Source of the DNA: Microbotryum violaceum
Lineage: Eukaryota
DNA: 64,000 nt
Direction: 5' to 3'
Assembly: GCA_001244265.2 (NCBI GenBank)
Contig: CDLV01000004.1
Location: forward strand, 2,976,001-3,040,000
Made by a program: the position numbers and the translations under genes. The notes under the pieces are model-generated. The model had not been told where the DNA came from. It ran no database searches and saw only the letters and a list, made by a program, of their open reading frames with translations. Position 1 is the first letter of the stretch; each line of letters starts with the position of its first letter. This document shows, piece after piece, positions 19,492 through 57,490 of this stretch.

Positions 19492-21723
19492 CTAGGTTCG
19501 GCGGCGCGCTCCGCGCGCCACCTCACATTGAGAATCAGCAGTTGCAGATGGCTACGGTTCTACGCTGCTTTCATCTATCTTCTGATCTCCTGGAGGTGGA
19601 CTGATTCGTCGTGATTTGGCAAAGTGAGGGTCGGGCAGAGAACTGTGCAGGACCGGAACGGAACGCTCTCGCTCAAGACTTTCCTGTTGACGACGTCTTT
19701 GCTGATCTTGAGACCTTCGAGAGATCGCAACGTTCGCAGGTGGTGGATCCATTGGATGAAGTTGATTTTCCGGCAGTGGAAGCAGTGCAATTGGTGACTG
19801 TGCGGCGACATCCACCGGGACAGAGTGGACGTTGGGCGTTGGCCGAGGTGGAGGCGATTGATTGATAGAATCAAATTTGCTGCCTTTCCCGGAGTCTCCG
19901 CAATTGTTGTGCCCTAAATCTTCTGGAAATAAAATGATCCGTCGATGTTGATGCGGTAGAGGCAGGGTTCGGCGAAAAACTGTGTGGGACCGGACCGGAA
20001 CGCTCTCGCTCGAGCCTTCGTCGTTGCTGGCCTTCAGACCTCCGAGACGTTGTGCAACTATCATTATTCTTGCTGTTGTCCATCTCTAGCAAGGGCAGTA
20101 AAGACTCACATTTAGTGTGCCAATGACCCGGATTCTCAACCGTACGAAGTCAAGCAGCACCCCAACTTCCCCCCAGAAGTCAGCATTCCATGAAGCAAGC
20201 GTCGACGATTTATGCAGGCGATGACTTGAGAATAACGGGAAGGCATTGCTTCGGTTTCCTGTGATGTTACAGTCCAACCGGTCAGTTATTCATGCTGCCC
20301 TGCGCTTTGCTTTTGAAAGATTGGCACACACTTGCCAACGCGATGGTCACCCCACCAAACCGAGCCATGGAATAACGGGATGGCATTGCTTCGGATCCCC
20401 TGTGATGTTACAGTCGATGTTACAGTCCAACCAGTCAGTCAGTCATGCTGCCCTGCGCCTTGCTTTTGAAATATTGGCACATACCTGCCAACACGACGGT
20501 CACTACACCGAACCGAGCCGTGGAATAACGGAAAGACATTGCTTCGGATTCCCTGTGCTGTTACAGTCGAACCGGTCATTAGTCATGCTGCCCTGCGTTT
20601 TGCTTTTGAAAGTTTCGCACACACCTGCCAACGTGATGGTCACCCCACCGAACCGAGACATTGAGGACCTGCCACGGGATGGTGAGCCGCAAGTCACGCG
20701 ACCAGAGCCTGTTTTCTGGCATGATTCGTTACAACTATCAGTATTCTCGCTGTTGTCCATCTGTAGCAATGGCAGTGAAGACTCACATTTAGTGTCCCAA
20801 TGACCCGGCGGATCTTCAACCGTACAAAGTCAATCCTTCCGCTGTTTCACTGACGTTCAATGTCTGTTTTTGGTGTCAGTTTTTCCGTCATATCTAAGAC
20901 TGCACAGCCATGTCAAGGGAGGACCCACGTATGCAATGTCACCAGCTGAAGGTGAAGAAACAACTCGAGGGTTGACACTCCTCGAAGAGGAAGTGTTGAA
21001 TGGAATTTCTGCTTGGTAGTTTTCCATTAGCTTCTGAACAACACAGCAAGAGCACAATCCATGAAGTTACTTACTCGAATTCGTAGCTATGTTGCTTGCA
21101 GCCATTTCTTGATTCCGTATTCGTTGCAGAGCTTCCACGGCAACCGCTTCGGATGTCGGAAGCTTGAGGTGGCGACGGGATGAGGTGCGATGGGTAAGGT
21201 GTGAAGAGCAGGAGGGAGAAAGATGGAGAAGCCTGCGCCTCAGTTTAAACCGGACTCATAGAATGTCGCGGAAGGCTGCGGAACATTGTGGAGTGAAGCC
21301 CGAAGCAGAGGGTCACGTGCCCAGCTGCTTTGATGGGAAATGGAACCTCGACAAACGTTGGAACCTCGGCGAACGTGGACGGAACGGTTTGTCGCCACGT
21401 GGTTTGTCTCCCGTTCTCTGACGTTCTTTGACATTGACGTGGTAGACTTTATAGTCGTTGAACGTTTCCTATACATACCAGTTTCTTGCTTCGCGCGCTT
21501 CCTTTTAAAAAATCAAAGATAAGCAAACCGCGATGCTTTAACAGCATTGTGAAATTTCCTAAACGGTCTGAAACAGCGCTAGCTAGCTGGGACGCTGGAC
21601 CGACAGCTGCTATGACGTCATGCCACGTGGTTTGTGCCACGTGGTTTGTCTATGTCTCAGGACGTTTTTTATTTTATAAGTTTTAAGGATTAAGGATAAG
21701 GATAAGGATTTAAGGATTAAGGA
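19492..21723 (-). mobile_element. Non-autonomous Helitron A, copy 1
   Basis: Minus strand starts A|TCCTTAATCC and ends GGTGGCGCGC-GGA-GCGCGCCGCC hairpin + GAAC + CTAG|T. No Rep/helicase motifs seen. Confidence 0.85.
20232..20657. repeat. ~140-bp internal tandem repeat x3 in Helitron A (present in every array unit)
   Basis: Recurring GGCATTGCTTCGG...GTTACAGTC...CATGCTGCCCTGCG...GCTTTTGAAA...CCGAACCGAG. Confidence 0.85.
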
Positions 21724-21725
21724 TA

Positions 21726-24257
21726 TCCTACTATCCTACTATCCTACTATAATACTCTAATATATATATATATACTCTAAAACCGACTGTTGTCTAGACA
21801 AAGAACGTCAAAGAACAAAAGACAAACCACGTGGCGTGACGTCATCGGCAGCTCTCGGTCTAGCGCGTCCCCGGAACTAGCTAGCGCTGATTCAGCATGG
21901 GGCCAGTGACAGACCGTTTCGCCTACCTTCGCCAAGGTTCCATTTCCCATAAAAGCGGCCTGGCACATGCCTCTCTGCTCCCCAGACGACCGGTTTTGCG
22001 TGCTTGCCACATCGTAGTGTAGTCCCTTCAACCATCCAGTTCTGCCACTGCCGAAGAGTCATCTGCAAGCTTTCACGTCCCGTCTGCTGTACAACAATCT
22101 TCACGGAGAGCAGCGGGGCAGCAGAGACGTCGGCAGCTGCTCGCGTTCCTCCTCCTCCGCACAATCCTCCTCCTCCCGCCTCCCGCTACAATCGCAGACA
22201 TCGCCGCCAGCAACCTCGAACAATCGCCGAAGCTCAGCGGCAACGACGCCTTCGCGAGAAGCAGCAGCGCGAAACCGATCAAGACGACGTCGCGCAAACT
22301 GGTTCGTCAATTCAACCTGCACCGGCAGCAGGCAGCCTCAAATGTCGCACGGCAAGTGCAACGGGCCCGCAGTTCTTCACCTCCAAGCTTGAGATTCGTT
22401 CCTCCACGCTTTGAAGCAGTTCCAGACCTCGGGTAGCGTCGGCCAGTGCGCCAATTCCGCCGTTAGGGGCCCGCCAGCGTGTCACGGGGCTTCACTCCAC
22501 GGCGTTCCGCGACATTCTATGAGCCCGGTTTAAGCTGAGACGCAGGCTCCTCCGTCTTTCTCCCTACTGCTCTTCACACCTTGCCCATCGCATCTCATCC
22601 CATCGCCACCTCGAGCTTGCGACATCCGAAGCGGTCGTTGTGGAGGCTCTGCAACAATTACGGGATCAAGAAATGCCCGCCGCATGCAACATAGCTACGA
22701 ATCCGAGTAAGTAACATCATGAAGTGTGCTCTTGGAGTGGGATTGTTCAGAAGCTAATGGAAAACTACCAAGCAGAAATTCCCTTCAACACATCCTCTTC
22801 GAATGTCAACCCTCGAGTTGTTTCTTCACCGCCAGCTGGTGACACGCATACGTGAGTCATCCCTTGACATGGCTGTGCAGTGTTAGATATGACGGACAAA
22901 CTGATACGAAAAACAGACATTGAACGTCAGTGACACAGCGGAAGGGTTGACTTTGTACGGTTGAAGATCCGCCGGGTCATTGGGACACTAAATGTGAGTC
23001 TTCACTGCCATTGCTACAGATGGACAACAGCGAGAATACTGATAGTTGTAACGAATCATGCCAGAAAACTGGCTCTGGTCGCGTGACTTGCGGCTCACCA
23101 TCCCGTGGCAGGTCCTCAATGTCTCGGTTCGGTGGGGTGACCATCACGTTGGCAGGTGTGTGCGAAACTTTCAAAAGCAAAACGCAGGGCAGCATGACTG
23201 ACTGACCGGTTGGACTGTAGCATCACAGGGGATCCGAAGCAATGCCTTCCCGTCATCCTCAACGGCTCGGTTCGGTGGGGTGACCATCCTGTTGGCAGGT
23301 ATGTGCCAATATTTCAAAAGCAAGGCGCAGGGCAGCATGACTGACTGACTGGTTGGACTGTAACATCGACTGTAACATCACAGGGGATCCGAAGCAATGC
23401 CATCCCGTTATTCCATGGCTCGGTTTGGTGGGGTGACCATCGCGTTGGCAAGTGTGTGCCAATCTTTCAAAAGCAAAGCGCAGGGCAGGATGACTAACGG
23501 ACCGGTTGTACTGTAACATCACAGGGGTTCCGAAACAATGCCTTCCCGTTATGCCACGGCTCGGTTCGGTGGGGTGACCATCCCTGCCAATCTTTCAAAA
23601 GCAAAGCGCAGGGCAGCATGATTAACTGACCGGTTGGACTGTAACATCACAAGGGATCCGAAGCAATGCCTTCCCATTATTCCAAGCCATCGCCAGCATA
23701 AATCGTCGACGCTTGCTTCATGGAATTCTGACTACTGGGGAGAAGTTGAGGTGGTGCTTGGCTTCGTGCGGTTGAGAATCGGGGCCCGGCTCAGTTCGGT
23801 GGAGTAACCGTCGTGTTGGCAGGTGTGTGCCAACCTTTCAAAAGCAAAGCGCAGGGCAGCATGACTGACTGACCGGCTGGACTATAACATCAAGGGCCAA
23901 GTTTTCTCAAGATCCCTTCCCATTATTCCCAAGTCATCGCCTGCACAAATCGTCGACGCTTGCTTGATGGAATGCTGACTTCTGGGGGGAAACAGCAAGA
24001 ATACTGATAGTTGCACGACGTCTCGGAGGTCTGAAGGCCAGCAACGACGACGGCTCGAGCGAGAGCGTTCCGGGCCGGTCCCACACAGTTCTTCGCCGAA
24101 CCCTGCCTCTACCGCATCAACATCGACGTCTGTGAGGTGGCCGCCGAACCTAGTATATATATTATAATAAAATAGGCCGTCGAGACAAAGAACGTTCTAG
24201 CACGAGACAAACCACGTGGCGTGACGTCATGGCGCGCGAAGCGCGCCACCGCACTAG
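21726..24257 (+). mobile_element. Non-autonomous Helitron B, copy 1 (composite with a 104-bp mini-Helitron at 24154-24257)
   Basis: Starts A|TCCTACTATCCTACTA. Hairpin-less CTAG at 24150-24153; second end GGCGCGC-GAA-GCGCGCC + ACCGCA + CTAG|T at 24231-24257. Internal sequence is an inverted homolog of A. Confidence 0.85.
23128..23930. repeat. ~140-bp internal tandem repeat x~5 in Helitron B (inverse of the repeat in A)
   Basis: Recurring TTCAAAAGCAAAGCGCAGGGCAGCATGACTGACTGACCGGTTGGACTGTAACATC. Confidence 0.85.
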
Positions 24258-26283
24258 TCTCCCAAAGTCGCTGCACCCCCAAGCCGCCCCCCAGCGCTGA
24301 GATCGTCGTCAATTTCCCAAGCCCGCGCCGCCGAATTTTTCTGGAACAAACCTTCAGCTCTAAAGAGCTTCAGGGATAACCAGGCACGCGGTAATACCTC
24401 CCAGCTGGGTATTTACTTTGACACATGGGTAATATCTGCTTGGATGGCTATTCCCCCGGCCTCCGGGTTTCCGTACGTGCAGCGTAGTTATTACCGGGTT
24501 TGGGGGTTATTGCCACCGCAATACCACCCCACGGATGTCTAGAACTTCTCTGTAACACTCTAGCCTCTGGCAGTGGATGAAACAGCGGGGAATGCCCATT
24601 CAGATGGGTATTCCCCACCAAAAACGTCGCTCAGTGAAAATCCGGCAAAATTGCCGATTTTGGACCTCATTTGTCCACCGTTTTTTGGAATTTCGCCCAA
24701 AAAAGTCACCAAAATGTCCAGTCCATCTACGCGCCTAAGAAAATAGCTCTAGGACTGCTTCAAATGCTCTTAAACATCTCCAAAAATCGCGAAAACGCCG
24801 TCAGGACGCTTTTCGCCCGGACCGAATCGCCGGAGCCCGCGCGCGCGCTAGCCGTTTCGGTTCTGCTTCGCCGAGGGCTCCTCACCTGCACTTACTGCCT
24901 GCCTCTTTGCCTATGCTATAACGTGGCCATGGTATGCATGTAACGTACCACGAGAGGTAGATCGATTGCAGTCACTCTGCGAAGCAGTAAGCTAGCTACC
25001 GTGAGGTGTTCAAACCAAATCCAATCGACAGTTGTTCTTCTCCTATGTTGCTGGCGTCACAACTGACAGGTATCGTGCCTCGTTTCAATACAAAGCAGAC
25101 AAGAGACCCAATTTTCAAGGCGCAGCTGACGTGACGTTTCCGTCGATCGACCCAAACGGTGGGATCTTGGCGAATGCCGTGTATTGCCTTGCTCGCAATT
25201 GCATCCGTACCTGGGCAAGAATGAACATTATTGATGAGCACTCTCTGGGCCATATGTGCAGAGCACACAATTGCAGCTCACTTCTTTACGTCCGTCTTCG
25301 ATGTATCCTATGTTTTCCGTTTCGTTTGCGGTCAAAAAGCGACTGAAGGTCCCTTGTCCTGTTCAACGAATGGACCTCGCCTCGCAACTCCTGACACGCG
25401 CGGTAACCTTGCTTACGCGCCGCAGTAATTGCTCCACGATCCTTGAACTTGGACCTCCAAGCATCGAGCGGCCTAAGAAGAGTATCACACTCGAGAAGCT
25501 CGTCTGTCGACCACGAAAGCTGTATCTGGGTTATCTGGGTGTCTGCAGTGGGTTGTCGAAGCGGAAGGCGAGAAGCTCAAGACACCCTCACGTCCTAGAA
25601 GGGTGCCATTCGTTCGAAATCATCGTCAAGGAGCTCGATATCCAAGTTGTCTAGATACATCTCGTCGAAGTTGGTTGAAGCGAGAGCCTAACCTAGGATG
25701 TTGATGACGATGATGGCACAGACGACGCGACGCGGCGGGGGAGGCAAGAGACGGCGCACTCGGACGAGACGCCTCGTTCAACCAGCCAAGAGGCTTATAA
25801 TTGCAAAATCGATCCATTAGAGCCCTTCTTGTGAATTCGGTACAGGCCCGAGTGTTTCGCGCGCGCTCCGCACGTTCTTGAGGGTCGGCAAACTCTGGCG
25901 TACCAAGCCGAACGTGGCTGAAATGGGCCCAGATTTGCCCAGCACCTAGGACCTCACCCGCACGGCGCACCCTGATTTGTCCACCTCCGACTACGCGCCT
26001 TCGCGATTTTGGCCCATCTGAGGCCCACATTTTGTCCAGTCAGGCACTACGCGCCTCAGGCCGGGCTTTCGGGGGTCCTTCCAGGGCTCTCCAGGTGGAG
26101 GCGCCAGATGCAGTAGTAGGCAGTAAGCCACGTTCTTCGCTGCCTAACCTCGTCCACGTCGGCGGCAGGCACCCCCCGCCTTCATCACAGACAGGCCCGA
26201 TTCGAATAAACGAGCCGGGCAAGAATAGACGAAACGAGAGGAGACGACCGCTTTCGCTCTTGTCGAGACCATCTTGCTTTCGA

Positions 26284-27098
26284 ATGAGCGACAATCTAGT
26301 ACGTGATGGTCCAGCAAGTCTCCTCCTCGGCCCTGAGCGCTGAGCTCCTCTCGACGCCCCCGACCCGCGCGCCTCGCAAAGCTCTTGGGCTGGCTGACTC
26401 GCTTCTTGTACTGACGATGACCACCCTTCTCGGTGCAATTGCAGGGTCGAGGTGGCCGGGGCCGTGGCGGTGGCGGTGGTGCGGCCCGCGGCGCACGGTC
26501 CACGCCCGGGTCTCGCGACGACAAACCGCGCCGCGAAGCGATACTGGATCTGAGCAAGTTCATTGACAAGCAGATCCGTGTCAAGTTCACAGGAGGTCGC
26601 GAGGGTGCGGCCCTACTCCCTTTTTTGCAGTGTGGTCGGTTCGGATCTGACCCTGTGCTCCTCCCCTTCGCCGGGGACGCCTCGTGCATGATCTCCGTTC
26701 TGCAGTCACTGGCACGCTGAAAGGGTACGATCAATTGCTCAATCTCGTCATGGACGATATCGAAGAAGCACTACGAGGTACGAGGCCCGTCGGATCGGAT
26801 GCATCGGGACTGCTCTCGCGAAGTGCACAGCCGACTTTATTACGCTCTTGTTCGATTCTGACCACTGGCTTCTGTCGGATCTCGCAGATCCCACCACCGG
26901 TCTCCTGCTCGCACCGAGGAGAACACGCTCACTCGGGCTCGCCGTCGTCCGCGGCACCAGCCTGATTGTTCTAAACCCACTTGACGGGTAACTTCTGCTG
27001 CGGTTATCAAGTCTCTTTACTGCATGATCACCCGGGTTCTTGACATCCTTGCACTCTATCATCACAGGTCCAAAGAGATCGCCAATCCATTTGCGTAG
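26284..27098 (+). CDS. LSM7: Sm-like protein Lsm7 (U6 snRNP / mRNA decay), 5 exons, intact; copy 1
   Basis: MSDNL|GRGG...KPRREAILDLSKFIDKQIRVKFTGGRE|VTGTLKGYDQLLNLVMDDIEEALR|DPTT...RSLGLAVVRGTSLIVLNPLDG|SKEIANPFA*; four GT-AG introns with consistent phases. Confidence 0.95.
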
Positions 27099-27154
27099 TG
27101 TGGTTCCGCAGATGTGTTCTGTTTCCGCAACGGGATAATGTGCACATTCTCGAA

Positions 27155-29011
27155 TCACAAGAAATAGCTCTGACTCACAGCATGTGGAAAGCCGTCAGCC
27201 ACTATTGCAGCTGTGCTTTTCGAAGCTCCCACTTACCGAGGCTGCAGACCGATTTGGAATGCTCTTGTCCTGATTGGGCACTGTGGCCAGAAAAGCAGCA
27301 TAGTGATACGAGAGTGGAGTGAGTCAGGTGGGTGAGGATCGGTGGATACGGTATTGTACGGCATGACGCGAAGAAGCGAAAATTAGTGGCGGCCAGAGGG
27401 AGACCGACATCAGCGGGAGGCTAAGTCTCTACACAAGAAAAGCCCTTGGTTTCGGGTCTTGGCTTTGACAGGAAAATGCGCACCTGCTTCGAAGATCTTG
27501 AAGCTATCCCTGTCAACGACTGTGCCCTCACGTACTTGCATCACGCTCGCGACGTTGCCACAACGGTAGCAATAATTCGGGGCTGACCAGACGGTCACGA
27601 GGTTGTTCTCGGGCGCGAACATGAACTTGTAGCCTTCCTGGACCAGTTGGTGGGCCCGCGCAATCAAGGTGAGCTGGTTCACAAGATTGAACTTTTGATA
27701 AACCCGACAACATAGCAGAATGCGACGTCAGCCATGAGAATGTGTGGGGTTCGCTCGAGTTGCGGGAAATCTTGCCTCATTGGTCACGCGCGCCCCGAAC
27801 AGCCACCCGGCACCTCGAGGTGATATGGACCATGTCTCGACCTCGTCGGGGTCGGACCACATCAGATCTAGATAAAGGACGACCATTTCGAAGCGTAAGT
27901 GCATGAAGCGTAGATGCGGACCGAGTTCTATCTCGCATTCAAAGGCGTACCGCAGAATGCGCCTTCGTGGGGAATCTCCTGGGCCCGCGCGATAACTCGT
28001 ATTTGGTCCAAAGTACGGAGCTCAGGAGAGAGACCGCCGTGTACACACAATATGGACCCATCCACGACCTAGACATCCACAAGGCCAAAGGCTCAATTGG
28101 TCAGTCCGGCGGACCTCCCTCTATATAGAGCGTTAAACATGCTTCGTTAAACATGCTTACAGCTGCGAGATTCAGGTAATCGAAGACCGAGCAACACGCC
28201 TTCCATACGTTGGCATTGCCGTACTTTTGTAGGCACTCGTCTGCGCACGGCGCAGGGGTTCGATCCGCACCCAAGTTCAGCTCGTATTGCACGCCTGATG
28301 AGCGAAATATGGCGAGGAGACGGACCATAAAAGCCATACACTTGCGTGATTTGTCGGGACTCGTGGTTGCCCCTGAGTAATGTCACGCGGTCCGGGTACC
28401 TGCCCGAATACGAAAGCCACGTATGGGAACACTGCCAACATTTGAAGTCGATCGAGGTCGAATGGGTATGAACCAGCTCTAAGAAGAGCGACTCACTTGG
28501 CCTTCAACGTTAGCAACAGTGAGAGCGTCTCTAGGCTGTAGTACCCCCGGTCAACGAAATCGCCCTTCTCGGGGGGGATGCCCCGAAAATTGAAAATAAG
28601 AGGGACTGTCAGACGCTTACGGCGCTTTTTGTACGAGCAAGCTGTACACCGCTTACCATGAAGATATAGGATGTCGAAGGACAATCCCCTCCCACCCGGA
28701 GTAGCTCGAGCAGGTCCCACAACTGTCCATGGATGTCGCCGCAGACGGTCACGGGGGAGGACACGGGCTGGACATTCGACTCCTCCATCAGCAGCGCGAG
28801 CACAATGTTGCACAGCTGCTTCATTACGGATTCGGGAAGATGTCGGCACTGGCGCAGTTGAGAAATGTACAGGTCGGGATTGAAGTCGCGCTGCAACAGC
28901 AAGTGTCGGGCCACTGTGAGGATTCTGGTGTCTACTACGGCGGTGGAGCGAGAAGCAGTAGGGGTGGCGGAGGGGAGACTCCAGAGGACGACGAGTCCGA
29001 AGGCTCACCAT
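27155..29011 (-). CDS. SIT4: Sit4/Ppe1/PP6-type Ser/Thr phosphatase catalytic subunit, multi-exon, apparently intact; copy 1
   Basis: [94 protein letters not shown]-terminal [12 protein letters not shown] and GAGWLFG favour Sit4/PP6 over PP2A, Pph3 or Ppg1. Confidence 0.9.
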
Positions 29012-29577
29012 GGTGAATGACCATACAAATGCGGACCCGACACGGCGTACCGATGTTACGAAGCTGTCGACAAAGCGTGAAGGTCTTGGCAGAGTGCAAG
29101 CGTGCTGATAGCCTAGCCGATACGTCCTGCAGCTGCTAGTGGTGCGCTAGATCGAGCCTGTGCGGGTTGATGATGAGCTATGAGGTTCGTACAAGACACA
29201 CGAGGTGTGCAGAGTGTGGAAAGAAGGAGGCGCAGAACTGTGGCGTTTGCCGTTGTCCAAATGGGTAGCCGTGGTGGTGATCATCGCTGCAAGAGAAGCT
29301 GAAGCCCGAATCGTGGGCAGCCTGCGGCGCGCCTCGTGGGAGCCTTGTACTATGGGCCGCCGTTTGTCGTTTTATTCCGAGTGAACACGCGCGGCGCAAT
29401 GACAATGCGCGCGAGACCGCTTTACAGCACACACCGGACATAACTGACACGCGTACGCGCCAGACCCTCTGTGACATACCTCGACGCATTGAACACACGC
29501 GTCAGCGCTATCTTTAACCCACGACGTAGCATTTATACACTCCTTCGCACTTTTCACTTGTTTCCTACCCATTTTGA

Positions 29578-31808
29578 CTAGGTTCGGCGGCGCGCTCCGC
29601 GCGCCACCTCACATTGAGAATCAGCAGTTGCAGATGGCTACGGTTCTACGCTGCTTTCATCTATCTTCTGATCTCCTGGAGGTGGACTGATTCGTCGTGA
29701 TTTGGCAAAGTGAGGGTCGGGCAGAGAACTGTGCAGGACCGGAACGGAACGCTCTCGCTCAAGACTTTCCTGTTGACGACGTCTTTGCTGATCTTGAGAC
29801 CTTCGAGAGATCGCAACGTTCGCAGGTGGTGGATCCATTGGATGAAGTTGATTTTCCGGCAGTGGAAGCAGTGCAATTGGTGACTGTGCGGCGACATCCA
29901 CCGGGACAGAGTGGACGTTGGGCGTTGGCCGAGGTGGAGGCGATTGATTGATAGAATCAAATTTGCTGCCTTTCCCGGAGTCTCCGCAATTGTTGTGCCC
30001 TAAATCTTCTGGAAATAAAATGATCCGTCGATGTTGATGCGGTAGAGGCAGGGTTCGGCGAAAAACTGTGTGGGACCGGACCGGAACGCTCTCGCTCGAG
30101 CCTTCGTCGTTGCTGGCCTTCAGACCTCCGAGACGTTGTGCAACTATCATTATTCTTGCTGTTGTCCATCTCTAGCAAGGGCAGTAAAGACTCACATTTA
30201 GTGTGCCAATGACCCGGATTCTCAACCGTACGAAGTCAAGCAGCACCCCAACTTCCCCCAGAAGTCAGCATTCCATGAAGCAAGCGTCGACGATTTATGC
30301 AGGCGATGACTTGAGAATAACGGGAAGGCATTGCTTCGGTTTCCTGTGATGTTACAGTCCAACCGGTCAGTTATTCATGCTGCCCTGCGCTTTGCTTTTG
30401 AAAGATTGGCACACACTTGCCAACGCGATGGTCACCCCACCAAACCGAGCCATGGAATAACGGGATGGCATTGCTTCGGATCCCCTGTGATGTTACAGTC
30501 GATGTTACAGTCCAACCAGTCAGTCAGTCATGCTGCCCTGCGCCTTGCTTTTGAAATATTGGCACATACCTGCCAACACGACGGTCACTACACCGAACCG
30601 AGCCGTGGAATAACGGAAAGACATTGCTTCGGATTCCCTGTGCTGTTACAGTCGAACCGGTCATTAGTCATGCTGCCCTGCGTTTTGCTTTTGAAAGTTT
30701 CGCACACACCTGCCAACGTGATGGTCACCCCACCGAACCGAGACATTGAGGACCTGCCACGGGATGGTGAGCCGCAAGTCACGCGACCAGAGCCTGTTTT
30801 CTGGCATGATTCGTTACAACTATCAGTATTCTCGCTGTTGTCCATCTGTAGCAATGGCAGTGAAGACTCACATTTAGTGTCCCAATGACCCGGCGGATCT
30901 TCAACCGTACAAAGTCAATCCTTCCGCTGTTTCACTGACGTTCAATGTCTGTTTTTGGTGTCAGTTTTTCCGTCATATCTAAGACTGCACAGCCATGTCA
31001 AGGGAGGACCCACGTATGCAATGTCACCAGCTGAAGGTGAAGAAACAACTCGAGGGTTGACACTCCTCGAAGAGGAAGTGTTGAATGGAATTTCTGCTTG
31101 GTAGTTTTCCATTAGCTTCTGAACAACACAGCAAGAGCACAATCCATGAAGTTACTTACTCGAATTCGTAGCTATGTTGCTTGCAGCCATTTCTTGATTC
31201 CGTATTCGTTGCAGAGCTTCCACGGCAACCGCTTCGGATGTCGGAAGCTTGAGGTGGCGACGGGATGAGGTGCGATGGGTAAGGTGTGAAGAGCAGGAGG
31301 GAGAAAGATGGAGAAGCCTGCGCCTCAGTTTAAACCGGACTCATAGAATGTCGCGGAAGGCTGCGGAACATTGTGGAGTGAAGCCCGAAGCAGAGGGTCA
31401 CGTGCCCAGCTGCTTTGATGGGAAATGGAACCTCGACAAACGTTGGAACCTCGGCGAACGTGGACGGAACGGTTTGTCGCCACGTGGTTTGTCTCCCGTT
31501 CTCTGACGTTCTTTGACATTGACGTGGTAGACTTTATAGTCGTTGAACGTTTCCTATACATACCAGTTTCTTGCTTCGCGCGCTTCCTTTTAAAAAATCA
31601 AAGATAAGCAAACCGCGATGCTTTAACAGCATTGTGAAATTTCCTAAACGGTCTGAAACAGCGCTAGCTAGCTGGGACGCTGGACCGACAGCTGCTATGA
31701 CGTCATGCCACGTGGTTTGTGCCACGTGGTTTGTCTATGTCTCAGGACGTTTTTTATTTTATAAGTTTTAAGGATTAAGGATAAGGATAAGGATTTAAGG
31801 ATTAAGGA
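29578..31808 (-). mobile_element. Non-autonomous Helitron A, copy 2
   Basis: Same as 19492-21723 apart from one C-run length difference. Confidence 0.85.
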
Positions 31809-31810
31809 TA

Positions 31811-41891: not shown

Positions 41892-41893
41892 TA

Positions 41894-46448: not shown

Positions 46449-47263
46449 ATGAGCGACAATCTAGTACGTGATGGTCCAGCAAGTCTCCTCCTCGGCCCTG
46501 AGCGCTGAGCTCCTCTCGACGCCCCCGACCCGCGCGCCTCGCAAAGCTCTTGGGCTGGCTGACTCGCTTCTTGTACTGACGATGACCACCCTTCTCGGTG
46601 CAATTGCAGGGTCGAGGTGGCCGGGGCCGTGGCGGTGGCGGTGGTGCGGCCCGCGGCGCACGGTCCACGCCCGGGTCTCGCGACGACAAACCGCGCCGCG
46701 AAGCGATACTGGATCTGAGCAAGTTCATTGACAAGCAGATCCGTGTCAAGTTCACAGGAGGTCGCGAGGGTGCGGCCCTACTCCCTTTTTTGCAGTGTGG
46801 TCGGTTCGGATCTGACCCTGTGCTCCTCCCCTTCGCCGGGGACGCCTCGTGCATGATCTCCGTTCTGCAGTCACTGGCACGCTGAAAGGGTACGATCAAT
46901 TGCTCAATCTCGTCATGGACGATATCGAAGAAGCACTACGAGGTACGAGGCCCGTCGGATCGGATGCATCGGGACTGCTCTCGCGAAGTGCACAGCCGAC
47001 TTTATTACGCTCTTGTTCGATTCTGACCACTGGCTTCTGTCGGATCTCGCAGATCCCACCACCGGTCTCCTGCTCGCACCGAGGAGAACACGCTCACTCG
47101 GGCTCGCCGTCGTCCGCGGCACCAGCCTGATTGTTCTAAACCCACTTGACGGGTAACTTCTGCTGCGGTTATCAAGTCTCTTTACTGCATGATCACCCGG
47201 GTTCTTGACATCCTTGCACTCTATCATCACAGGTCCAAAGAGATCGCCAATCCATTTGCGTAG
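46449..47263 (+). CDS. LSM7: Lsm7, copy 3
   Basis: Same exons as copy 1, offset 20165. Confidence 0.93.
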
Positions 47264-47319
47264 TGTGGTTCCGCAGATGTGTTCTGTTTCCGCAACGGGA
47301 TAATGTGCACATTCTCGAA

Positions 47320-49174
47320 TCACAAGAAATAGCTCTGACTCACAGCATGTGGAAAGCCGTCAGCCACTATTGCAGCTGTGCTTTTCGAAGCTCCCACTTA
47401 CCGAGGCTGCAGACCGATTTGGAATGCTCTTGTCCTGATTGGGCACTGTGGCCAGAAAAGCAGCATAGTGATACGAGAGTGGAGTGAGTCAGGTGGGTGA
47501 GGATCGGTGGATACGGTATTGTACGGCATGACGCGAAGAAGCGAAAATTAGTGGCGGCCAGAGGGAGACCGACATCAGCGGGAGGCTAAGTCTCTACACA
47601 AGAAAAGCCCTTGGTTTCGGGTCTTGGCTTTGACAGGAAAATGCGCACCTGCTTCGAAGATCTTGAAGCTATCCCTGTCAACGACTGTGCCCTCACGTAC
47701 TTGCATCACGCTCGCGACGTTGCCACAACGGTAGCAATAATTCGGGGCTGACCAGACGGTCACGAGGTTGTTCTCGGGCGCGAACATGAACTTGTAGCCT
47801 TCCTGGACCAGTTGGTGGGCCCGCGCAATCAAGGTGAGCTGGTTCACAAGATTGAACTTTTGATAAACCCGACAACATAGCAGAATGCGACGTCAGCCAT
47901 GAGAATGTGTGGGGTTCGCTCGAGTTGCGGGAAATCTTGCCTCATTGGTCACGCGCGCCCCGAACAGCCACCCGGCACCTCGAGGTGATATGGACCATGT
48001 CTCGACCTCGTCGGGGTCGGACCACATCAGATCTAGATAAAGGACGACCATTTCGAAGCGTAAGTGCATGAAGCGTAGATGCGGACCGAGTTCTATCTCG
48101 CATTCAAAGGCGTACCGCAGAATGCGCCTTCGTGGGGAATCTCCTGGGCCCGCGCGATAACTCGTATTTGGTCCAAAGTACGGAGCTCAGGAGAGAGACC
48201 GCCGTGTACACACAATATGGACCCATCCACGACCTAGACATCCACAAGGCCAAAGGCTCAATTGGTCAGTCCGGCGGACCTCCCTCTATATAGAGCGTTA
48301 AACATGCTTCGTTAAACATGCTTACAGCTGCGAGATTCAGGTAATCGAAGACCGAGCAACACGCCTTCCATACGTTGGCATTGCCGTACTTTTGTAGGCA
48401 CTCGTCTGCGCACGGCGCAGGGGTTCGATCCGCACCCAAGTTCAGCTCGTATTGCACGCCTGATGAGCGAAATATGGCGAGGAGACGGACCATAAAAGCC
48501 ATACACTTGCGTGATTTGTCGGGACTCGTGGTTGCCCCTGAGTAATGTCACGCGGTCCGGGTACCTGCCCGAATACGAAAGCCACGTATGGGAACACTGC
48601 CAACATTTGAAGTCGATCGAGGTCGAATGGGTATGAACCAGCTCTAAGAAGAGCGACTCACTTGGCCTTCAACGTTAGCAACAGTGAGAGCGTCTCTAGG
48701 CTGTAGTACCCCCGGTCAACGAAATCGCCCTTCTCGGGGGGATGCCCCGAAAATTGAAAATAAGAGGGACTGTCAGACGCTTACGGCGCTTTTTGTACGA
48801 GCAAGCTGTACACCGCTTACCATGAAGATATAGGATGTCGAAGGACAATCCCCTCCCACCCGGAGTAGCTCGAGCAGGTCCCACAACTGTCCATGGATGT
48901 CGCCGCAGACGGTCACGGGGAGGACACGGGCTGGACATTCGACTCCTCCATCAGCAGCGCGAGCACAATGTTGCACAGCTGCTTCATTACGGATTCGGGA
49001 AGATGTCGGCACTGGCGCAGTTGAGAAATGTACAGGTCGGGATTGAAGTCGCGCTGCAACAGCAAGTGTCGGGCCACTGTGAGGATTCTGGTGTCTACTA
49101 CGGCGGTGGAGCGAGAAGCAGTAGGGGTGGCGGAGGGGAGACTCCAGAGGACGACGAGTCCGAAGGCTCACCAT
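47320..49174 (-). CDS. SIT4: Sit4/PP6 phosphatase, copy 3; same 1-nt homopolymer deletion as copy 2
   Basis: G4 at 48917-48920; otherwise as copy 1. Confidence 0.8.
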
Positions 49175-51368
49175 GGTGAATGACCATACAAATGCGGACC
49201 CGACACGGCGTACCGATGTTACGAAGCTGTCGACAAAGCGTGAAGGTCTTGGCAGAGTGCAAGCGTGCTGATAGCCTAGCCGATACGTCCTGCAGCTGCT
49301 AGTGGTGCGCTAGATCGAGCCTGTGCGGGTTGATGATGAGCTATGAGGTTCGTACAAGACACACGAGGTGTGCAGAGTGTGGAAAGAAGGAGGCGCAGAA
49401 CTGTGGCGTTTGCCGTTGTCCAAATGGGTAGCCGTGGTGGTGATCATCGCTGCAAGAGAAGCTGAAGCCCGAATCGTGGGCAGCCTGCGGCGCGCCTCGT
49501 GGGAGCCTTGTACTATGGGCCGCCGTTTGTCGTTTTATTCCGAGTGAACACGCGCGGCGCAATGACAATGCGCGCGAGACCGCTTTACAGCACACACCGG
49601 ACATAACTGACACGCGTACGCGCCAGACCCTCTGTGACATACCTCGACGCATTGAACACACGCGTCAGCGCTATCTTTAACCCACGACGTAGCATTTATA
49701 CACTCCTTCGCACTTTTCACTTGTTTCCTACCCATTTTGACTAGGTTCGGCGGCGCGCTCCGCGCGCCACCTCACATTGAGAATCAGCAGTTGCAGATGG
49801 CTACGGTTCTACGCTGCTTTCATCTATCTTCTGATCTCCTGGAGGTGGACTGATTCGTCGTGATTTGGCAAAGTGAGGGTCGGGCAGAGAACTGTGCAGG
49901 ACCGGAACGGAACGCTCTCGCTCAAGACTTTCCTGTTGACGACGTCTTTGCTGATCTTGAGACCTTCGAGAGATCGCAACGTTCGCAGGTGGTGGATCCA
50001 TTGGATGAAGTTGATTTTCCGGCAGTGGAAGCAGTGCAATTGGTGACTGTGCGGCGACATCCACCGGGACAGAGTGGACGTTGGGCGTTGGCCGAGGTGG
50101 AGGCGATTGATTGATAGAATCAAATTTGCTGCCTTTCCCGGAGTCTCCGCAATTGTTGTGCCCTAAATCTTCTGGAAATAAAATGATCCGTCGATGTTGA
50201 TGCGGTAGAGGCAGGGTTCGGCGAAAAACTGTGTGGGACCGGACCGGAACGCTCTCGCTCGAGCCTTCGTCGTTGCTGGCCTTCAGACCTCCGAGACGTT
50301 GTGCAACTATCATTATTCTTGCTGTTGTCCATCTCTAGCAAGGGCAGTAAAGACTCACATTTAGTGTGCCAATGACCCGGATTCTCAACCGTACGAAGTC
50401 AAGCAGCACCCCAACTTCCCCCCAGAAGTCAGCATTCCATGAAGCAAGCGTCGACGATTTATGCAGGCGATGACTTGAGAATAACGGGAAGGCATTGCTT
50501 CGGTTTCCTGTGATGTTACAGTCCAACCGGTCAGTTATTCATGCTGCCCTGCGCTTTGCTTTTGAAAGATTGGCACACACTTGCCAACGCGATGGTCACC
50601 CCACCAAACCGAGCCATGGAATAACGGGATGGCATTGCTTCGGATCCCCTGTGATGTTACAGTCGATGTTACAGTCCAACCAGTCAGTCAGTCATGCTGC
50701 CCTGCGCCTTGCTTTTGAAATATTGGCACATACCTGCCAACACGACGGTCACTACACCGAACCGAGCCGTGGAATAACGGAAAGACATTGCTTCGGATTC
50801 CCTGTGCTGTTACAGTCGAACCGGTCATTAGTCATGCTGCCCTGCGTTTTGCTTTTGAAAGTTTCGCACACACCTGCCAACGTGATGGTCACCCCACCGA
50901 ACCGAGACATTGAGGACCTGCCACGGGATGGTGAGCCGCAAGTCACGCGACCAGAGCCTGTTTTCTGGCATGATTCGTTACAACTATCAGTATTCTCGCT
51001 GTTGTCCATCTGTAGCAATGGCAGTGAAGACTCACATTTAGTGTCCCAATGACCCGGCGGATCTTCAACCGTACAAAGTCAATCCTTCCGCTGTTTCACT
51101 GACGTTCAATGTCTGTTTTTGGTGTCAGTTTTTCCGTCATATCTAAGACTGCACAGCCATGTCAAGGGAGGACCCACGTATGCAATGTCACCAGCTGAAG
51201 GTGAAGAAACAACTCGAGGGTTGACACTCCTCGAAGAGGAAGTGTTGAATGGAATTTCTGCTTGGTAGTTTTCCATTAGCTTCTGAACAACACAGCAAGA
51301 GCACAATCCATGAAGTTACTTACTCGAATTCGTAGCTATCACCACCACCTCAACTGAGGGCGACACGC

Positions 51369-52788
51369 ATGAACAACCACAACAACAACGACACCAGCAA
51401 TGCCACCCCCGGTGCTATAGCACCTAATCGCCCTCCCGACCCCACCGGCGTCACCGTCACCGCCCAAACCAAGTCGTACTCCGCGGCCGTCTCCGCCCGT
51501 TCCCATGCGAAGACCAACGCCACCCCCGCCACCGCCACGACTGTTGCCTCCCACCCGATGATTCACAACATCGCCAACTGTGTAATCATCAAAACCCCTC
51601 CCGCGACCACCTCCGAGAAAGTGCTCTCAGCACTCGATCACCACTACCCGGCCCTTGCAGGCGCCATGCCCTGCGTCATCAAGGGACAACACGGCATCCG
51701 ATTCCCTAAGGACGCCGACATCGCCGACCTGGTCGCGAATGGTCTGACCGTTGGAAAGACCTTGTGCCAAGTCGAGAAACTATTCTCAGCCACTACTGGT
51801 CTAATTCAATGCACCCTTTCTGGCTTCTTCTCCGATGTAGAGGGCCTCCGCCTCTTTGATGAGCAGATTGCCGAGTACGGCAAGGTCCTCCTTCGCCGCA
51901 CTCATTACATTGGCAAGACTAGGCACATCTCTGGGGTGTATGACTTTGTTCTTGCCCTCGGGGACCCAAACAAATTGCCTCCTGCATCCATCTCCATTGA
52001 ACGCGACGGCGTGACCGAGCGTATCCCGCTCAGGATCACCGGTGGCATGCGCCACTGTGTTTTCTGCCGTTCCGCGGCCCATGTCCGTAAGGACTGCCCC
52101 GTCGCCCCGGCGTGCAAGTCGTGCGCAAGCACCTCGCACGCCAGCCAGCATTGCCCGGGCCGCCGCTTCGCGTCGAGCCCCCAGGGCACTCCCGAGTCAC
52201 GTGCCGCGCAAGCCTCCACCATGACCAAAGCCCCCCCGGCCTCCAAGTCGATCCCTGCGCCACCCGCGCCCGACCGCTCGTTGAAGACCAAAAAACGTCG
52301 AGTGAACCCAGACCAGGACCTGGCTGCCCAGCCCCAAGATCCATCTAACAGGGCTCAGCCTGAACCCCTGTCGGAGACTCCTCGCCCCGGTTTCTCCTTC
52401 AATTTCCCTCCCAACTCCGCCCCCCTGCCCGCCTCCAACCAGTCAACTGCCCCTCCCCTCGTTGAAAAATCCTCCGAGTCCCCCAGCTCGGAGACGACCC
52501 CTTCGCCCCCAAGCCCTGCTCCGGCCACACCAACGCCAAAGACGATCATCACTCGTTCCCAGTCAATTGCTGCCCTCTCCACACCAGCCACTCGTGAAGA
52601 CCCGCCCACTCCGCCTGCCCCGAAGCCTCCGAGCCGAACCCCCGGCCCTCCTCGCCGTTGCCCTCAGCGATCAAAGCCCGACCCGATGCCACCGACGCCG
52701 ACGAAGATGCCGAAGAAGAAGGCAAAGACCAAGAAGCACCCCCGAGGACGTGGACGACGTTATGGAGCAAGACGATGAGCACAATTAA
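51369..52788 (+). CDS. LINE ORF1 (gag-like, two CCHC knuckles); frameshifts at C-runs near the 3' end
   Basis: CVFCRSAAHVRKDC and CKSCASTSHASQHC; Pro/Ser-rich tail, then an acidic end EDVDDVMEQDDEHN* spread over three frames. Confidence 0.85.
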
Positions 52789-55700
52789 GATCCCAAACGT
52801 GTCTTTTGTTGCTGCCAACGTGCAGTCAATCAATGAAGATCGTAAGCGTGCCTCTCTTTTCTCCAATCTCCGCTCCCATAACGCCGATGTCTTTCTCCTG
52901 AGCGAAACGGGCCGACCTTCCCCGGAAAGGGTTGCCCAGTGGACTCAGGAGTGCCAAGACTTAAAGCTCTCCGCTCTTTTCACTCCTCTCAACAACACCG
53001 CTATACTCTGGAAGAGCGACTCCGTGGTCATCACTATTGATCCCGAGTCACCTCCCAACACTCTTCGTGCCTCTTTCGCTTTCCCCGACCGAGTCATCGA
53101 CGCCACCTTTCGCGTGGGAGACTCAAAAATCCGGGTTGTATCAATGTACGCGCCTTCCTCCGACAAGCCAGACAAAAAGCGTTTCCTCTCACATCTCAGC
53201 ACAGCCCTCCGACAAGTCGTGCGCGACGAGCCCTCGCCGCCTGCGCTCTTAGTCGGGGGGACTGGAATTGTGTTGAGTCCCAACCCCTCGATTCGGAGAA
53301 CCAAAACGGGACGAATTATGGGGGCCAGGAGATGCGCGACCTTGCCACGGCCAACAACCTCTTTGATGTCTATCGGCTTCACCATCCCAAAGGACGAGCC
53401 ACGACGAATCGCTCAGCGCCCGGCACGTGCCGTCGCCTTGACCGCATCTATGTCTCGCCTGATTGGGTCGACCTCTTCCACGACCACAAAATCTGGGCTC
53501 CTGTCCTCAAATCGACGCACTCGATGGTGGCGGCGCGGTTCCAAGTGCCGGGCGCAATCGACATCGGTCCGGGTAAATTCAAGTTGGGTTTGCACGTGAT
53601 CGAGGGCGACGCGACCTGCGAATACCTCACTTCCACTGTCCAGGCCCTCTACAATGAAGCCCTCCTCCAGACGCCCGACGACCCATCAGCAGCTTGGACG
53701 TCCACCAAACAACACTTGCTGCCCGAGCTTCAGGCTCTGGCTCGCACACTTGCCCGCTTCCGACGTGGAGGATCGGAGGAGGCGAAGGCAGATCACTCGC
53801 GCTACGGCGCGGCGCTGCGGTCCCGCATTGATCCTTCCCTCGCGGGCCCATCTTCCATCTTCATCCGCCTACGCAAAGTGCGCGCATCCGACCTCATCCC
53901 TTCCCTCTCGGTCGACAATGTCGTCCACTCCGACCCCGACTCGATGCTTGGAGCCGCTAGCAAGTACTTCGAAGGGGTCTACGAGGATCGCGCTATCGAT
54001 GACGACGCCTTGGAGAAGATTATCGACGGTCTCGCCTCGACTCGCCTATCCCCTGCCGATTCGGACAAGCTCGAAGGAGCGTACCCCCTAGAGGAGATAA
54101 CAAAGGCACAAGAGGCGTGTAAGTCGAACTCCTCGCCTGGACCCGACGGTCTCCCGGTCGAGTTTTACCGCGCAACGTGGACAGCCACAGGCCCCATCCT
54201 CCGCGACGTCATCAACTCGATCCCCACCGACGACGCCAGTTCTCGAACGTCGGCCCGCCACACTGCCCACATCCACCTCATCCACAAGCGCGGCGAGAGG
54301 GATCGGCTGGTGAACAAACGCCCCATATCACTCATCAACGCTGATGAACGCATCATCTCCCAAGCCCACAACCAGCGCCTTGCCCCTCTGCTCGAGACCC
54401 TGATCGGCTCGACCCAGCGCGGTTTCATTCCGAACCGCTGGATTGGCACGAACATCGCCGAGGTGCAGTGTCTCATGGATCCTGGGCTCCCGGGTTCAGA
54501 GCCGGTGTCCGGTCTGCTCGCAGTGATGGACTTCGAGAAGGCTTACGACCGTCTTTCCCACACCTACATCGATGCAGTCCTCAGCGCCGTTGGCCTTGGC
54601 CCGAAAGCCTGCCAATGGTACCGAGCGACCTATACAAACCAATCCGCCTCAATCTACCTCAACGGATGGCTCTCGGCCGCGTTCGATATCCTCTCGGGAG
54701 TTCGACAAGGCGACCCGCTGGCTCCGTCGCTCTTCGTTCTCGCAATTGAGGGCTTCGCCGTACAGTTGCGGTCACAAGTCAAGGGCATCGCGAGCCCGGG
54801 ACTCCCAACCATACGAGAACTTCTCTTTGCCGACGATGCCTGCTGTGCTCTCCACGACACCTCGGACCTCGACCACCTCAATCGGGCGATCGAGCTGTAC
54901 GAGCGGGCAAGTGCCAGCAAGCTCAGCAACGCCAAATCTTTCCTCTACCCCCTCGGGTCATTCAGGGACCGTCCGATCCCTTCACACCTCGGGTCCTGGC
55001 GTCTCAGCGACTCGCAGTTTCGTTACCTGGGAGTGCAGGTTGGGGTGGACATCGCCGAGGATGCGGGCTGGGAGGAGGTCAAGTCCGCGACCGTCGCCCG
55101 GATACGATCCATCCCAATGTACGACCTTCCGTACGCAGCGAAATGTTCGATAATCAATATCTACTGCTACACGAAGATTCTCTACCATAATCGTTTCATC
55201 CCAGCTTCCAAGAGCGTCGTCAAGGAGATCGAGGACGCGGTCATGATCGCTATCCACGGTCGAGCCTCGGACGGATCTCAGAAACCCCGAAGGTCTCTCG
55301 GCTGCGCCTCTGCACCCCTCTCGACCACGGCGGCTTTGGCTTGATTGACTTACCTCGGCGCCTCGCGGTCGATCACGCCAAGTGGGTCTTTCATCTTCGG
55401 GACCCGGACGGCTGCTTCATTCAGCACCTCTTCGACATCCGCACTCGCCTTCAGGCGGCGAACGAACGCACCCCCTTTACCTTGCCCAAATCAGGCCCCA
55501 ACCCACATCGTCGCTCGTGGGTCTGGATCTGGTGGGCCTACTTTTGCCACCCTCCTCCACAGTGGGAACGCGCAGTGAGGAAGACGAAGGCCCTGCTCCC
55601 TCCACGATGGATCCGCTTTTTCGAAGCCTGGGATTTGGTGACAACGCTGAACCCCCCCGAACTTTCCAAGAGCCCGAATCTGGAGCGGTGGGCAACACAC

Positions 55701-56345
55701 GTCCTCTACTTCCCAGCAGGCCACGGAATCCGACTCTCGGTGAACCCGACGCTTTTCCGAGGACCCGATGGCGAGGTGATGACTCCGTCTTCGTTTGTGA
55801 ACGCGTCCAAACGCCACCAAGCCTTCCTCTACCCTCCTATCCTCCCTCTCGGTCATCAGAGGGTTTTCTGTCTCCCCGAGCAACGCTGGAATGCCTGGTG
55901 GAAGGCGCTACGCAAGATTCGCAGGGTTCATTCGGACGCCGAAGACACGGCCCACCTCCTCTCCCTAGGTTCACTTCATCCAGGTAGCCAAATCGCTTCT
56001 CCGAATAGCCGTTCTCTCCACAATCGATCTACCGCATGTGTCATGTGCCTGTCGGAGGCTCCGGAGACCCTGGCACACCTTGCGGTCGGTTGCCCGTTTG
56101 CCCGCCGCCTCTGGTCTGCGCTCACTCCTATCCCACACCCCGACTTTGTTCAGTTCGTGTGCCCGGTCGTTTCTCGCTCGGAACGCCGACCCGTCGAGCT
56201 GCGTCTACTCTTCTTCCACGCGATCTGGAAGCTCTCTCGTCGCCGTCGATTTTCGTCGGATCCTCTGGAGCCGATCGCCGAAACGGCATTTGAGGAGCTC
56301 CGCGCGTCCATCCAGGAGTCCAAGGGACGACTGGTTTCGCTGTAA
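52775..56345 (+). CDS. LINE ORF2: APE endonuclease, reverse transcriptase, C-terminal zinc finger; frameshifts at ~53255 and ~55285
   Basis: AANVQS, LLSET, GGDWN (across a G-run), RRLDRIY, SPGPDGLP, RPISLIN, DFEKAYD, GVRQGDPL, LFADD, YLGV, GGFGL, CVMC...ETLAHLAVGC. Confidence 0.95.
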
Positions 56346-57490
56346 CCGCCTAAGGGGGTTTTAGTGGGTATGGTTGATTTTGTTCCAAGGTCAACGAGTC
56401 CCACACTACTGGCCTCGCCAGTGTGCTTAACTGCATTCCCTCCGTCTTTTCCGAGGATTTTTAGGCATTAATATAGATATGCTGTTAATGAAATCTATTA
56501 GATAAAAAAAAAAAATGTTGCTTGCAGCCATTTCTTGATTCCGTATTCGTTGCAGAGCTTCCACGGCAACCGCTTCGGATGTCGGAAGCTTGAGGTGGCG
56601 ACGGGATGAGGTGCGATGGGTAAGGTGTGAAGAGCAGGAGGGAGAAAGATGGAGAAGCCTGCGCCTCAGTTTAAACCGGACTCATAGAATGTCGCGGAAG
56701 GCTGCGGAACATTGTGGAGTGAAGCCCGAAGCAGAGGGTCACGTGCCCAGCTGCTTTGATGGGAAATGGAACCTCGACGAACGTTGGAACCTCGGCGAAT
56801 GTGGACGGAACGGTCTGTCGCCACGCGGTTTGTCTCCCGTTCTCTGACGTTCTTTGACGTTGACGTGGTAGACACGCAAAACAGTCTACTTCGAGACACA
56901 GAGGGTCACGTGCTATTCAATGGAAGCTCGACGAACGTAGGCGAACGTAGGCGAAACGGTCTGAAACAGCGCTAGCTAGCTGGGACGCTGGACCGAGAGC
57001 TGCTATGACGTCATGCAACGTGGTTTGTGCCACGTGGTTTGTCTATGTCTCAGGATGTTTTTTTATTTTATATAAGTTTTAATAAGGATTAAGGATAACA
57101 CTCTTTCGCACTTCAAGCGCACTCAAGCGAGATTCTCACGCTCACCAGATTTATATATGATCACACACGCCAGACCACATCTGAACACACACGTAAGCGA
57201 CTTGAACTCTTCTCCGACATCTCAACACACGCGCCAGAAAATGAAAATGATTTTCAGGATATCTTTCCCGGATTCGAGACCCCGCACTCACTCACCTCGG
57301 GCAGACATAAAAAATACGCCTCAACAGGCGCCCGCGCAGCGCCCCCTTAAGCGCCTTCCAAGTCACTGCTCCAGCCCGAGGCCTGAAAGGTGAGAGAGAG
57401 GGATGGCCCGGAGGTCCATTGTCGTCTGACATGACAACCGATGGCGATGACTTGTCCGGGGTTAGTGAGTCAACACCGTCGTCAAGGTAT

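Follow-up and report, generated by a model that had tools for sequence, protein, structure and literature searches.

The stretch of DNA analysed here (the window) comprises 64,000 nucleotides from Microbotryum violaceum, namely positions 2,976,001 to 3,040,000 of the forward strand of contig CDLV01000004.1 (assembly GCA_001244265.2). It holds a tandem array in which a block of about 10,083 bp carrying two genes, LSM7 and SIT4/PP6, is present in three units (19492-29577, 29578-39660 and 39661-49740), here phased on the end of a Helitron transposon that we call X. Four copies of X lie in the array; the first of them (X1) opens unit 1, and the last (X2) stands behind unit 3 and is interrupted by a long interspersed nuclear element (LINE), a non-long-terminal-repeat (non-LTR) retrotransposon. 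The genes, the units and the Helitron copies are as follows, with coordinates counted from the first letter of the window and the gene positions of unit 1 given first:

19492-21696, minus strand: Helitron X copy 1 (X1), 2205 bp, non-autonomous, 5'-TCCTTAATCC...hairpin 19503-19519...GAACCTAG-3'
26284-27098 (unit 2: 36369-37183; unit 3: 46449-47263), plus strand: LSM7, complete coding sequence in 5 exons, assigned by homology and tblastn
27155-29011 (unit 2: 37240-39094; unit 3: 47320-49174), minus strand: SIT4/PPE1/PP6 catalytic subunit, complete coding sequence, assigned by homology and tblastn
29578-39660, minus strand: unit 2, with its Helitron X copy at 29578-31781
39661-49740, minus strand: unit 3, with its Helitron X copy at 39661-41864
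49741-51339 and 56515-57095, minus strand: fourth copy of Helitron X (X2), 2180 bp once the LINE is subtracted

The identity of the genes was taken from homology searches and tblastn, as Pfam was mostly blank on the short single exons; both genes come nearest to proteins of Microbotryum. For LSM7, tblastn matched residues 6-123 of a Microbotryum protein of 123 amino acids (aa), with MSDNL/ lying upstream (here and below a slash marks a junction). The open reading frame (ORF) contains an LSM domain (Pfam, E 2.5e-6), and the exon with the Sm domain is 100% identical to the M. lychnidis-dioicae protein over the aligned 23% of the query. For SIT4/PP6, residues 2-292 of the 311-aa Leucosporidium orthologue were covered by tblastn, and a phosphatase exon showed 97% identity to a Microbotryum saponariae protein. 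Its first exon, which consists of the ATG only before a GTGAGC donor, and its last mini-exon, SYFL followed by a stop, were both read by eye. The two genes are convergent, with stop codons 57 bp apart. An earlier sequence-only reading of the window had described two whole, intron-containing, convergent genes per unit, and the recovery of both complete coding sequences agrees with this description.

The units proved to be extremely similar. Self-BLAST of the window aligned 19486-41258 with 29571-51339 at 99.95% identity; the 21,776 aligned columns contain 10 gaps and no mismatch, and the array period is about 10,083-10,085 bp. When the three full units and the beginning of the fourth were aligned with MAFFT, 7 within-unit differences and 0 substitutions emerged. 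Each of the 7 alters the length of a C or G run of 4-7 letters by one base (unit-1 positions 20169, 24275/6, 24453, 24502, 26071, 28571 and 28753). This is the error profile of long-read assembly, and as the units differ by such indels only, the copies are effectively identical. Tandem Repeats Finder was blind to the 10-kb period, although the internal 153-bp arrays that it found reappear every ~10,083 bp. If the rest of the unit is denoted G', the array has the form X-G'-X-G'-X-G'-X2, that is, four copies of X and three units. With regard to the three near-identical units plus a partial fourth that had been proposed earlier, the units stand, whereas the presumed partial unit is a Helitron copy interrupted by the 5175-bp LINE. 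The host part amounts to ~3.5 kb per unit (~26054-29577 in unit 1), the other 6.5 kb consisting of nested Helitrons and other repeats.

The left edge of the array and every junction carry the tetranucleotide CTAG (19492-19495, 29578-29581, 39661-39664 and 49741-49744), and the minus-strand ends of the units read ...GGTGGCGCGCGGAGCGCGCCGCCGAACCTAG, followed by T. The 3' hairpin of X, which has a 10-bp stem and lies 8 nt before the CTAG, is significant (-13.3 kcal/mol, z -3.4, a value reached by none of 200 shuffled sequences), and the placing of the left edge and of all junctions at hairpin plus CTAG, as claimed in the sequence-only reading, was thereby confirmed. At the other end, X2 begins with TCCTTAATCC at 57095 on the minus strand, a boundary set by the empty-site joint described below. 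The 13-mer of this 5' end is also found in X1 at 21684-21696 (7 matches versus 0.02 expected). Within the window the motif TCCTTAATCCTTA is confined to the 5' end of X2 and the corresponding position in each of the three full units; on the 5' side of X1 it stands twice, 27 bp apart (21684-21696 and 21711-21723). The ends TCCTTAATCC... and ...GAACCTAG are not complementary, and self-BLAST of the window gave no terminal inverted pair for X. The ORFs of X matched no Pfam family, and none of the ORFs in the window gave a Helitron helicase or Rep match, i.e. no RepHel gene was found there. X1 also contains 153-bp tandem repeats at 20263-20661. With a 5'-TC, a CTRR-3' end, a subterminal hairpin, an A/T target without duplication, no terminal inverted repeats and multiple copies, X can be classified, as judged from its sequence, as a discrete 2.2-kb non-autonomous canonical Helitron of the structure A/TC...hairpin...CTAG/T.

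Alignment revealed five copies in the window of a conserved 5' module of the X family (...GACAAACCACGTGGCRTGACGTCAT...AGCTAGCTAGCGCTG...). Two of these modules (those of X1 and X2) start with TCCTTAATCC, and two directly follow the 3' CTAG of another Helitron, namely one in the left flank of the array (19491 downward) and one in a 104-bp mini element behind an older Helitron, H2. The flanks of X1 rebuild the 5' end of the family, with the 5' module resuming directly beyond the 3' CTAG of X1, and X1 is hence a discrete insertion too, lying at an A/T within an older Helitron, H_L, some 20-27 nt away from the 5' end of the latter. X2 is inserted at an A/T 566 bp upstream of the start codon of SIT4. 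On the minus strand the two targets are similar (TTA/TAAAAT and TTA/TCAAAAT), which hints at a target-site preference of X.

To delimit X2 we made use of contigs from four public runs of related material (X1, X9, X11 and X15, from 20 runs listed; run X1 bears no relation to the Helitron copy X1), which were compared with the window over 39001-59000. Two of the four share the species label of the runs with the best word share, and the remaining two carry one each of two other labels. The strain of run X1 is of the same species as the window, because its gene-core contig agrees with the window at all of 3340 letters. In all four runs, contigs join 49738/49740 straight to 57094/57096 (a 2-letter ambiguity), with a depth at about the single-copy or gene-core level in runs X1, X9 and X11, and the whole 49741-57095 segment is missing at the matching place. 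The empty site reads ...CATTTTGA/TAACACTC... in the relatives, i.e. ...TTTTGA/TAACAC..., and the segment found only in the window reads A/TCCTTAATCC...CTAG/T on the minus strand. We trust the joint because it falls exactly on canonical Helitron ends in four runs. All four relatives have the empty X2 site and are hence without this array. Moreover, single-copy-like low depth was confined to 46338-49672 of the unit in each of the four runs, the remainder being high-depth repeat, and the bins over X had ~7-32x the depth of the gene-core bins.

The comparison with the relatives also settles the nature of the letters that follow the Helitron end. The TC that succeeds each CTAG is the beginning of the host DNA upstream of SIT4, since in all four runs this DNA passes without a break into the right flank; its T stems from the A/T target and its C is there by chance. 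The minus-strand junction does read CTAG/TC, as stated in the sequence-only reading, but this TC is no Helitron 5' end. LSM7 and SIT4 themselves are at their native locus and have not been brought from elsewhere, because the host right flank directly continues the SIT4 upstream region in the relatives. Within the window, the upstream end of SIT4 showed no similarity to the right flank beyond a 22-nt chance match. The related contigs are also informative about exon 1 of SIT4, which in units 2 and 3 is one G short in a G5 run, either a frameshift or a homopolymer error. The gaps of the related-strain contigs against unit 3 equal the homopolymer deficits of unit 3 (3 in 46219-49555 and 2 in 47518-49409), and because of this match the missing G is read as a probable, though not proved, assembly error.

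Run X15 deviated from the other runs in depth. Its gene core (46217-49555), which is split into four contigs, had a contig depth of 579-736 compared to 212-250 for neighbouring single-contig joints and the right-flank contig, i.e. ~2.8x, while this ratio was ~1 in runs X1, X9 and X11. At several X positions (e.g. 41225/41227) run X15 has only non-window letters, and its contigs total 30.4 million letters versus 21.2-22.9 in the other three. A triplication would give such a depth, but run X15 shows the empty site too, and the same ratio would result from a sample that is mixed or heterozygous; the depth is therefore counted neither for nor against the array. Copy-number variation whose boundaries differ from those seen here is one possible reading of it, a mixed sample the other.

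The Helitron copies were also compared with each other. Over 1861 bp, which extend to either side of the LINE, no difference separates X1, the two inner copies and X2. The last ~340 bp of X2 (its 5' end) differ from X1, and the inner copies have the X1 version. Over 81 bp (21353-21433 versus 56779-56859) X1 and X2 show 5 differences, all of them transitions, 4 at CpG and in both directions; beyond these, a 113-bp segment is replaced by an 80-bp one, and identity is ~94% over the last 140 bp. CpG/TCG-directed mutation has been reported for Microbotryum repeats, and the CpG transitions between X1 and X2 recall that pattern. With regard to the 113-bp segment private to the 5' region of X1, it was observed (as 41614-41680, equal to 21447-21513) in runs X9 and X11, which have two other species labels, where it is bordered on either side by unlike sequence; it may have entered X1 as a foreign piece. 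X1, the first copy, and X2, the last, are best regarded as separate insertions of one 2.2-kb Helitron.

From this arrangement we infer the following course of events. X would have been present in the same orientation on either side of a stretch of ~8 kb in which the native LSM7 and SIT4/PP6 genes stood together with older nested Helitrons and one further repeat. X1 and X2, situated on sister chromatids or on homologues, would first have undergone unequal homologous recombination with each other, duplicating the unit of X plus 8 kb, and a second unequal exchange inside the array would then have given the three units of X-G'-X-G'-X-G'-X2. Unequal exchange is favoured because the rest of the unit is present in n copies and X in n+1. 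The n units are accompanied by n+1 direct repeats, of which the outer ones have private ends and the inner ones are hybrids of an X2 left part and an X1 right part; the X1-type end of the inner copies is therefore as expected for such hybrids. The LINE would have entered X2 after X2 had gained its identity to X1. Whether the LINE forms the boundary of a conversion tract was also considered, and this was ruled out, as the identity between X1 and X2 extends 263 bp past the LINE. We consider it fairly probable that the array arose by unequal homologous recombination between two direct Helitron copies; the sequence-only reading had offered unequal crossover between flanking direct copies as the second of two options, and this is the one that fits everything found. 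Transposon repeats as the substrate of tandem gene copies made by non-allelic homologous recombination are an established idea (PMC10470754). A transposon-driven increase in the dosage of both genes, which had been proposed earlier as well, would be a consequence that we infer from the array.

Several points weigh against this origin. The copy number of the units is that given by the assembly. Just 24 letters anchor the shorter side of the empty-site joint, and the sequence between is flagged as not known. The stretch over which the relatives were compared leaves the left flank of X1 outside, the best word share of any listed run with the window was 0.85, and all runs were represented by contigs. 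At positions within X such as 41225 and 41227 the letter of the window occurs in 0 of 4 runs, and the comparison of X1 with X2 is unrooted. If X2 came from a different master copy, perfect identity over 1861 bp next to a divergence of ~6% across the final 340 bp would call for one more event, be it gene conversion or a chimeric origin; for this mixed identity, a local hop followed by conversion and a chimeric origin are both possibilities. Finally, no signature separates recombination from replication-based template switching.

The last point leads to the alternative that survives best, in which the homology of X was used without crossover, either by reintegration of an excised circle of X plus 8 kb or by template switching or break-induced replication over X. 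The end product would be the same as that of unequal crossover, and the strong 3' hairpin of X could stall replication. Nothing in the sequence distinguishes this route from unequal crossover, and we regard it as unlikely.

An assembly artefact is rather improbable. It would mean that one or two LSM7-SIT4 blocks exist and that the long-read assembler looped through identical Helitron copies. The 0 substitutions in 3 x 10 kb are in line with such a loop, the 30-kb array exceeds many long reads, so that the unit number may be off by one, and the defining state of the array was seen in 0 of the 4 related runs, all of which have the empty site. On the other hand, the residual homopolymer errors differ among the three units, as if each had been polished from its own reads. 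A loop would also need reads that run from the SIT4 upstream region through X into an X1-type right part, which is impossible in a single-copy arrangement; there, X2 carries the LINE 1.6 kb from its end. Assemblers collapse tandem repeats more often than they invent them, which likewise counts against an artefact.

It is very unlikely that the array in its entirety (19492-57095, 37.6 kb) is developing into a giant composite Helitron, with the Helitron transposase, and not the recombination machinery of the cell, having driven local amplification after X2 landed beside SIT4. The array is bracketed on one strand by an intact 5' end (that of X2) and an intact hairpin plus CTAG 3' end (that of X1), and the sequence of events would be the one proposed for ToxB-HLE (see below), here with canonical ends and boundaries at base level. 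If true, such a composite could move two complete, essential, intron-containing genes by bypass of a 3' end.

The least probable explanation is the first option of the sequence-only reading, according to which the 10-kb unit itself is a composite Helitron multiplied by rolling circle into a head-to-tail concatemer, or, in a variant, the product of transposase read-through between X copies. The minus-strand junction CTAG/TC and the fact that the region is a nest of head-to-tail Helitron ends speak for it; the 3' end of a Helitron can be passed over so that neighbouring DNA is taken along (PMC4778049), and a preprint (10.1101/2025.11.13.688278) proposes that a Helitron-like element duplicated an entire fungal gene in tandem by rolling circle. 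However, in each of the four related runs the supposed 5' end of the unit, TCAAAATGGG..., continues straight into the right flank, i.e. it is host DNA at an ordinary A/T target, and it is unlike the conserved 5' end of the family, TCCTTAATCC. Furthermore, the last copy is a complete 2.2-kb X that ends flush at its own 5' terminus and has a diverged 5' 340 bp, the window contains no RepHel gene, and it contains no CTAG/TCCTTAATCC (X/X) junction, though one is expected for a composite of the X2 5' end and the X1 3' end. A search for CTAG/TCCTTAATCC in the window with up to 3 mismatches gave 3 matches, all in a TAAGGA repeat, a number equalled in 3 of 100 shuffles.

Apart from X, the units and their edges contain further repeats, several of them nested:

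21697-21723, minus strand: 5'-end stub of the older Helitron H_L, with the second TCCTTAATCCTTA motif (motif, alignment and BLAST)
~21727-24153, plus strand: H2, an older Helitron of the same family, inverted, ~92.6% identical to X over 1 kb, 5' end approximate
24154-24257, plus strand: mini Helitron remnant of 104 bp, head-to-tail behind H2, with a 5' module fused to a hairpin (24231-24247) and CTAG (24254-24257), then T
24838-25972 (34923-36057 and 45004-46138), strand not assigned: high-copy repeat of 1.13 kb upstream of LSM7, in 3 of 3 units
51340-56514, plus strand: LINE (non-LTR retrotransposon) of 5175 bp inside X2, with an RVT_1 match (E 2.2e-20) and a 3' poly-A

The remainder of H_L runs to the left of X1 from 19491 to at least 19291, probably to 18214. 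The left flank (18214-18632 and 19291-19477) matches the inverted centre of the unit (22401-21790) with 92.7% and 82% identity, respectively, and has an extra 659 bp with a short Gly/Tyr/Gln-rich ORF that ends at 19298; the match is probably the body of an older Helitron subfamily. The 3' CTAG of H2 stands at 24150-24153 and is followed by T. In the end region of H2 (24120-24160), GAACCTAG is kept while the centre of the 3' palindrome is gone (GGTGGC-CGCC), and no fold was obtained (z +1.45). The hairpin of the mini Helitron has a value of -11.5 kcal/mol (z -2.9). The 1.13-kb repeat has no terminal repeats and gave no Pfam match. It is missing at this place in the relatives, where 45003 is joined to 46158 in 4 of 4 runs with single-copy-like depth; at this joint, 23 letters that resemble 25975-25997 replace it.

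The LINE has a target duplication of 0-2 bp and weak endonuclease and zf-RVT matches. Its second ORF is split across three frames, which may be due to homopolymer errors. Near-identical LINE contigs of high depth occur in all four related runs, and in runs X1, X9 and X11 (two species labels) they differ by 0-2 letters and have ~15-25x the gene-core depth. The LINE family therefore looks recently active.

The window as a whole is very transposon-rich. LTR-retrotransposon remnants (integrase, RNase H and protease) were seen at 12243-15501 and 60915-63998, and a CxC1/KDZ-transposase fragment at 59061-59561. An inverted repeat pair (369-939 versus 58386-57818, 88% identity, 57 kb apart) brackets most of the window, and a 195-bp tandem repeat of 2.5 copies lies at 1345-1839. 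A fungal Zn2Cys6 exon is located at 6804-7343. In the left flank, ARAGORN called a tRNA-like gene at 18093-18164 with the anticodon TTA, which would read UAA; a pseudo-tRNA or a false call is possible.

Helitrons are reported to be abundant in Microbotryum genomes (PMC4469406, PMC10502011), where they make up 10% of the transposon sequence and are enriched upstream of genes (PMC4469406), and Helitron helicase genes have been reported there as well (PMC5967549). X shares with canonical elements of the Helitron1 type (Helibat/Helraiser) the 5'-TC, the CTAG-3' and a GC-rich hairpin 8 nt before the CTAG (PMC4778049). Like canonical non-autonomous Helitrons, it inserts at A/T without target duplication, is non-coding and lies just upstream of genes (PMC4778049, PMC4469406). 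No RepHel partner of X was seen in the window. The family seems to insert repeatedly ~20 nt inside the 5' end of its relatives, which results in head-to-tail nests.

With regard to gene amplification, the array resembles the tandem copies discussed for effector genes of Erysiphe necator and Blumeria, where, as here, direct transposon repeats flank the tandem copies and one repeat lies between units (PMC10470754). Unlike in these effectors, the genes amplified here are conserved regulators, one for an Lsm ring subunit and one for a PP2A-like phosphatase, and both flanking insertions are delimited to the base. In ToxB-HLE of Pyrenophora tritici-repentis a complete gene is likewise present in tandem with Helitron-like ends at the unit boundaries, and the model put forward there starts with an inserted piece that places a 3' terminus beside the gene, with unequal crossover as a second step (10.1101/2025.11.13.688278). 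ToxB-HLE differs in having non-canonical ends (TGTC..., CTATAT, T/T target) and rolling circle as the proposed main driver (10.1101/2025.11.13.688278), whereas the ends described here are canonical and the evidence points away from a rolling-circle unit. The array also has the layout that is the starting point of read-through capture by Helitrons, as known from maize, bats and Fusarium: on one strand, a Helitron 5' end (57095) is followed further downstream by a 3' end (19492), with host DNA in between (PMC4778049). Capture usually moves fragments to new loci, whereas here the genes are whole, remain at their native locus and are not known to have a transposed copy. Full-text literature searches, none of which paired LSM7 or SIT4 with Microbotryum, returned no description of this LSM7-SIT4 array.

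The mechanism favoured here is a textbook one, and the array would be a fresh example of a familiar amplification route. It should be underlined that a CTAG/TC at a repeat junction is no proof of a head-to-tail Helitron. Both flanking insertions could be delimited to the base, one of them by means of the empty site in the relatives, and the locus would thereby provide a clear example of how a small non-autonomous Helitron beside a gene sets up a whole-gene copy-number change in a fungal plant pathogen. Moreover, the amplified genes are not the usual effectors. They are dosage-sensitive regulators, a phosphatase of the PP6/Sit4 type and a subunit of the Lsm2-8/1-7 ring, and if the array is real, it would constitute a natural test of the tolerance of threefold dosage.

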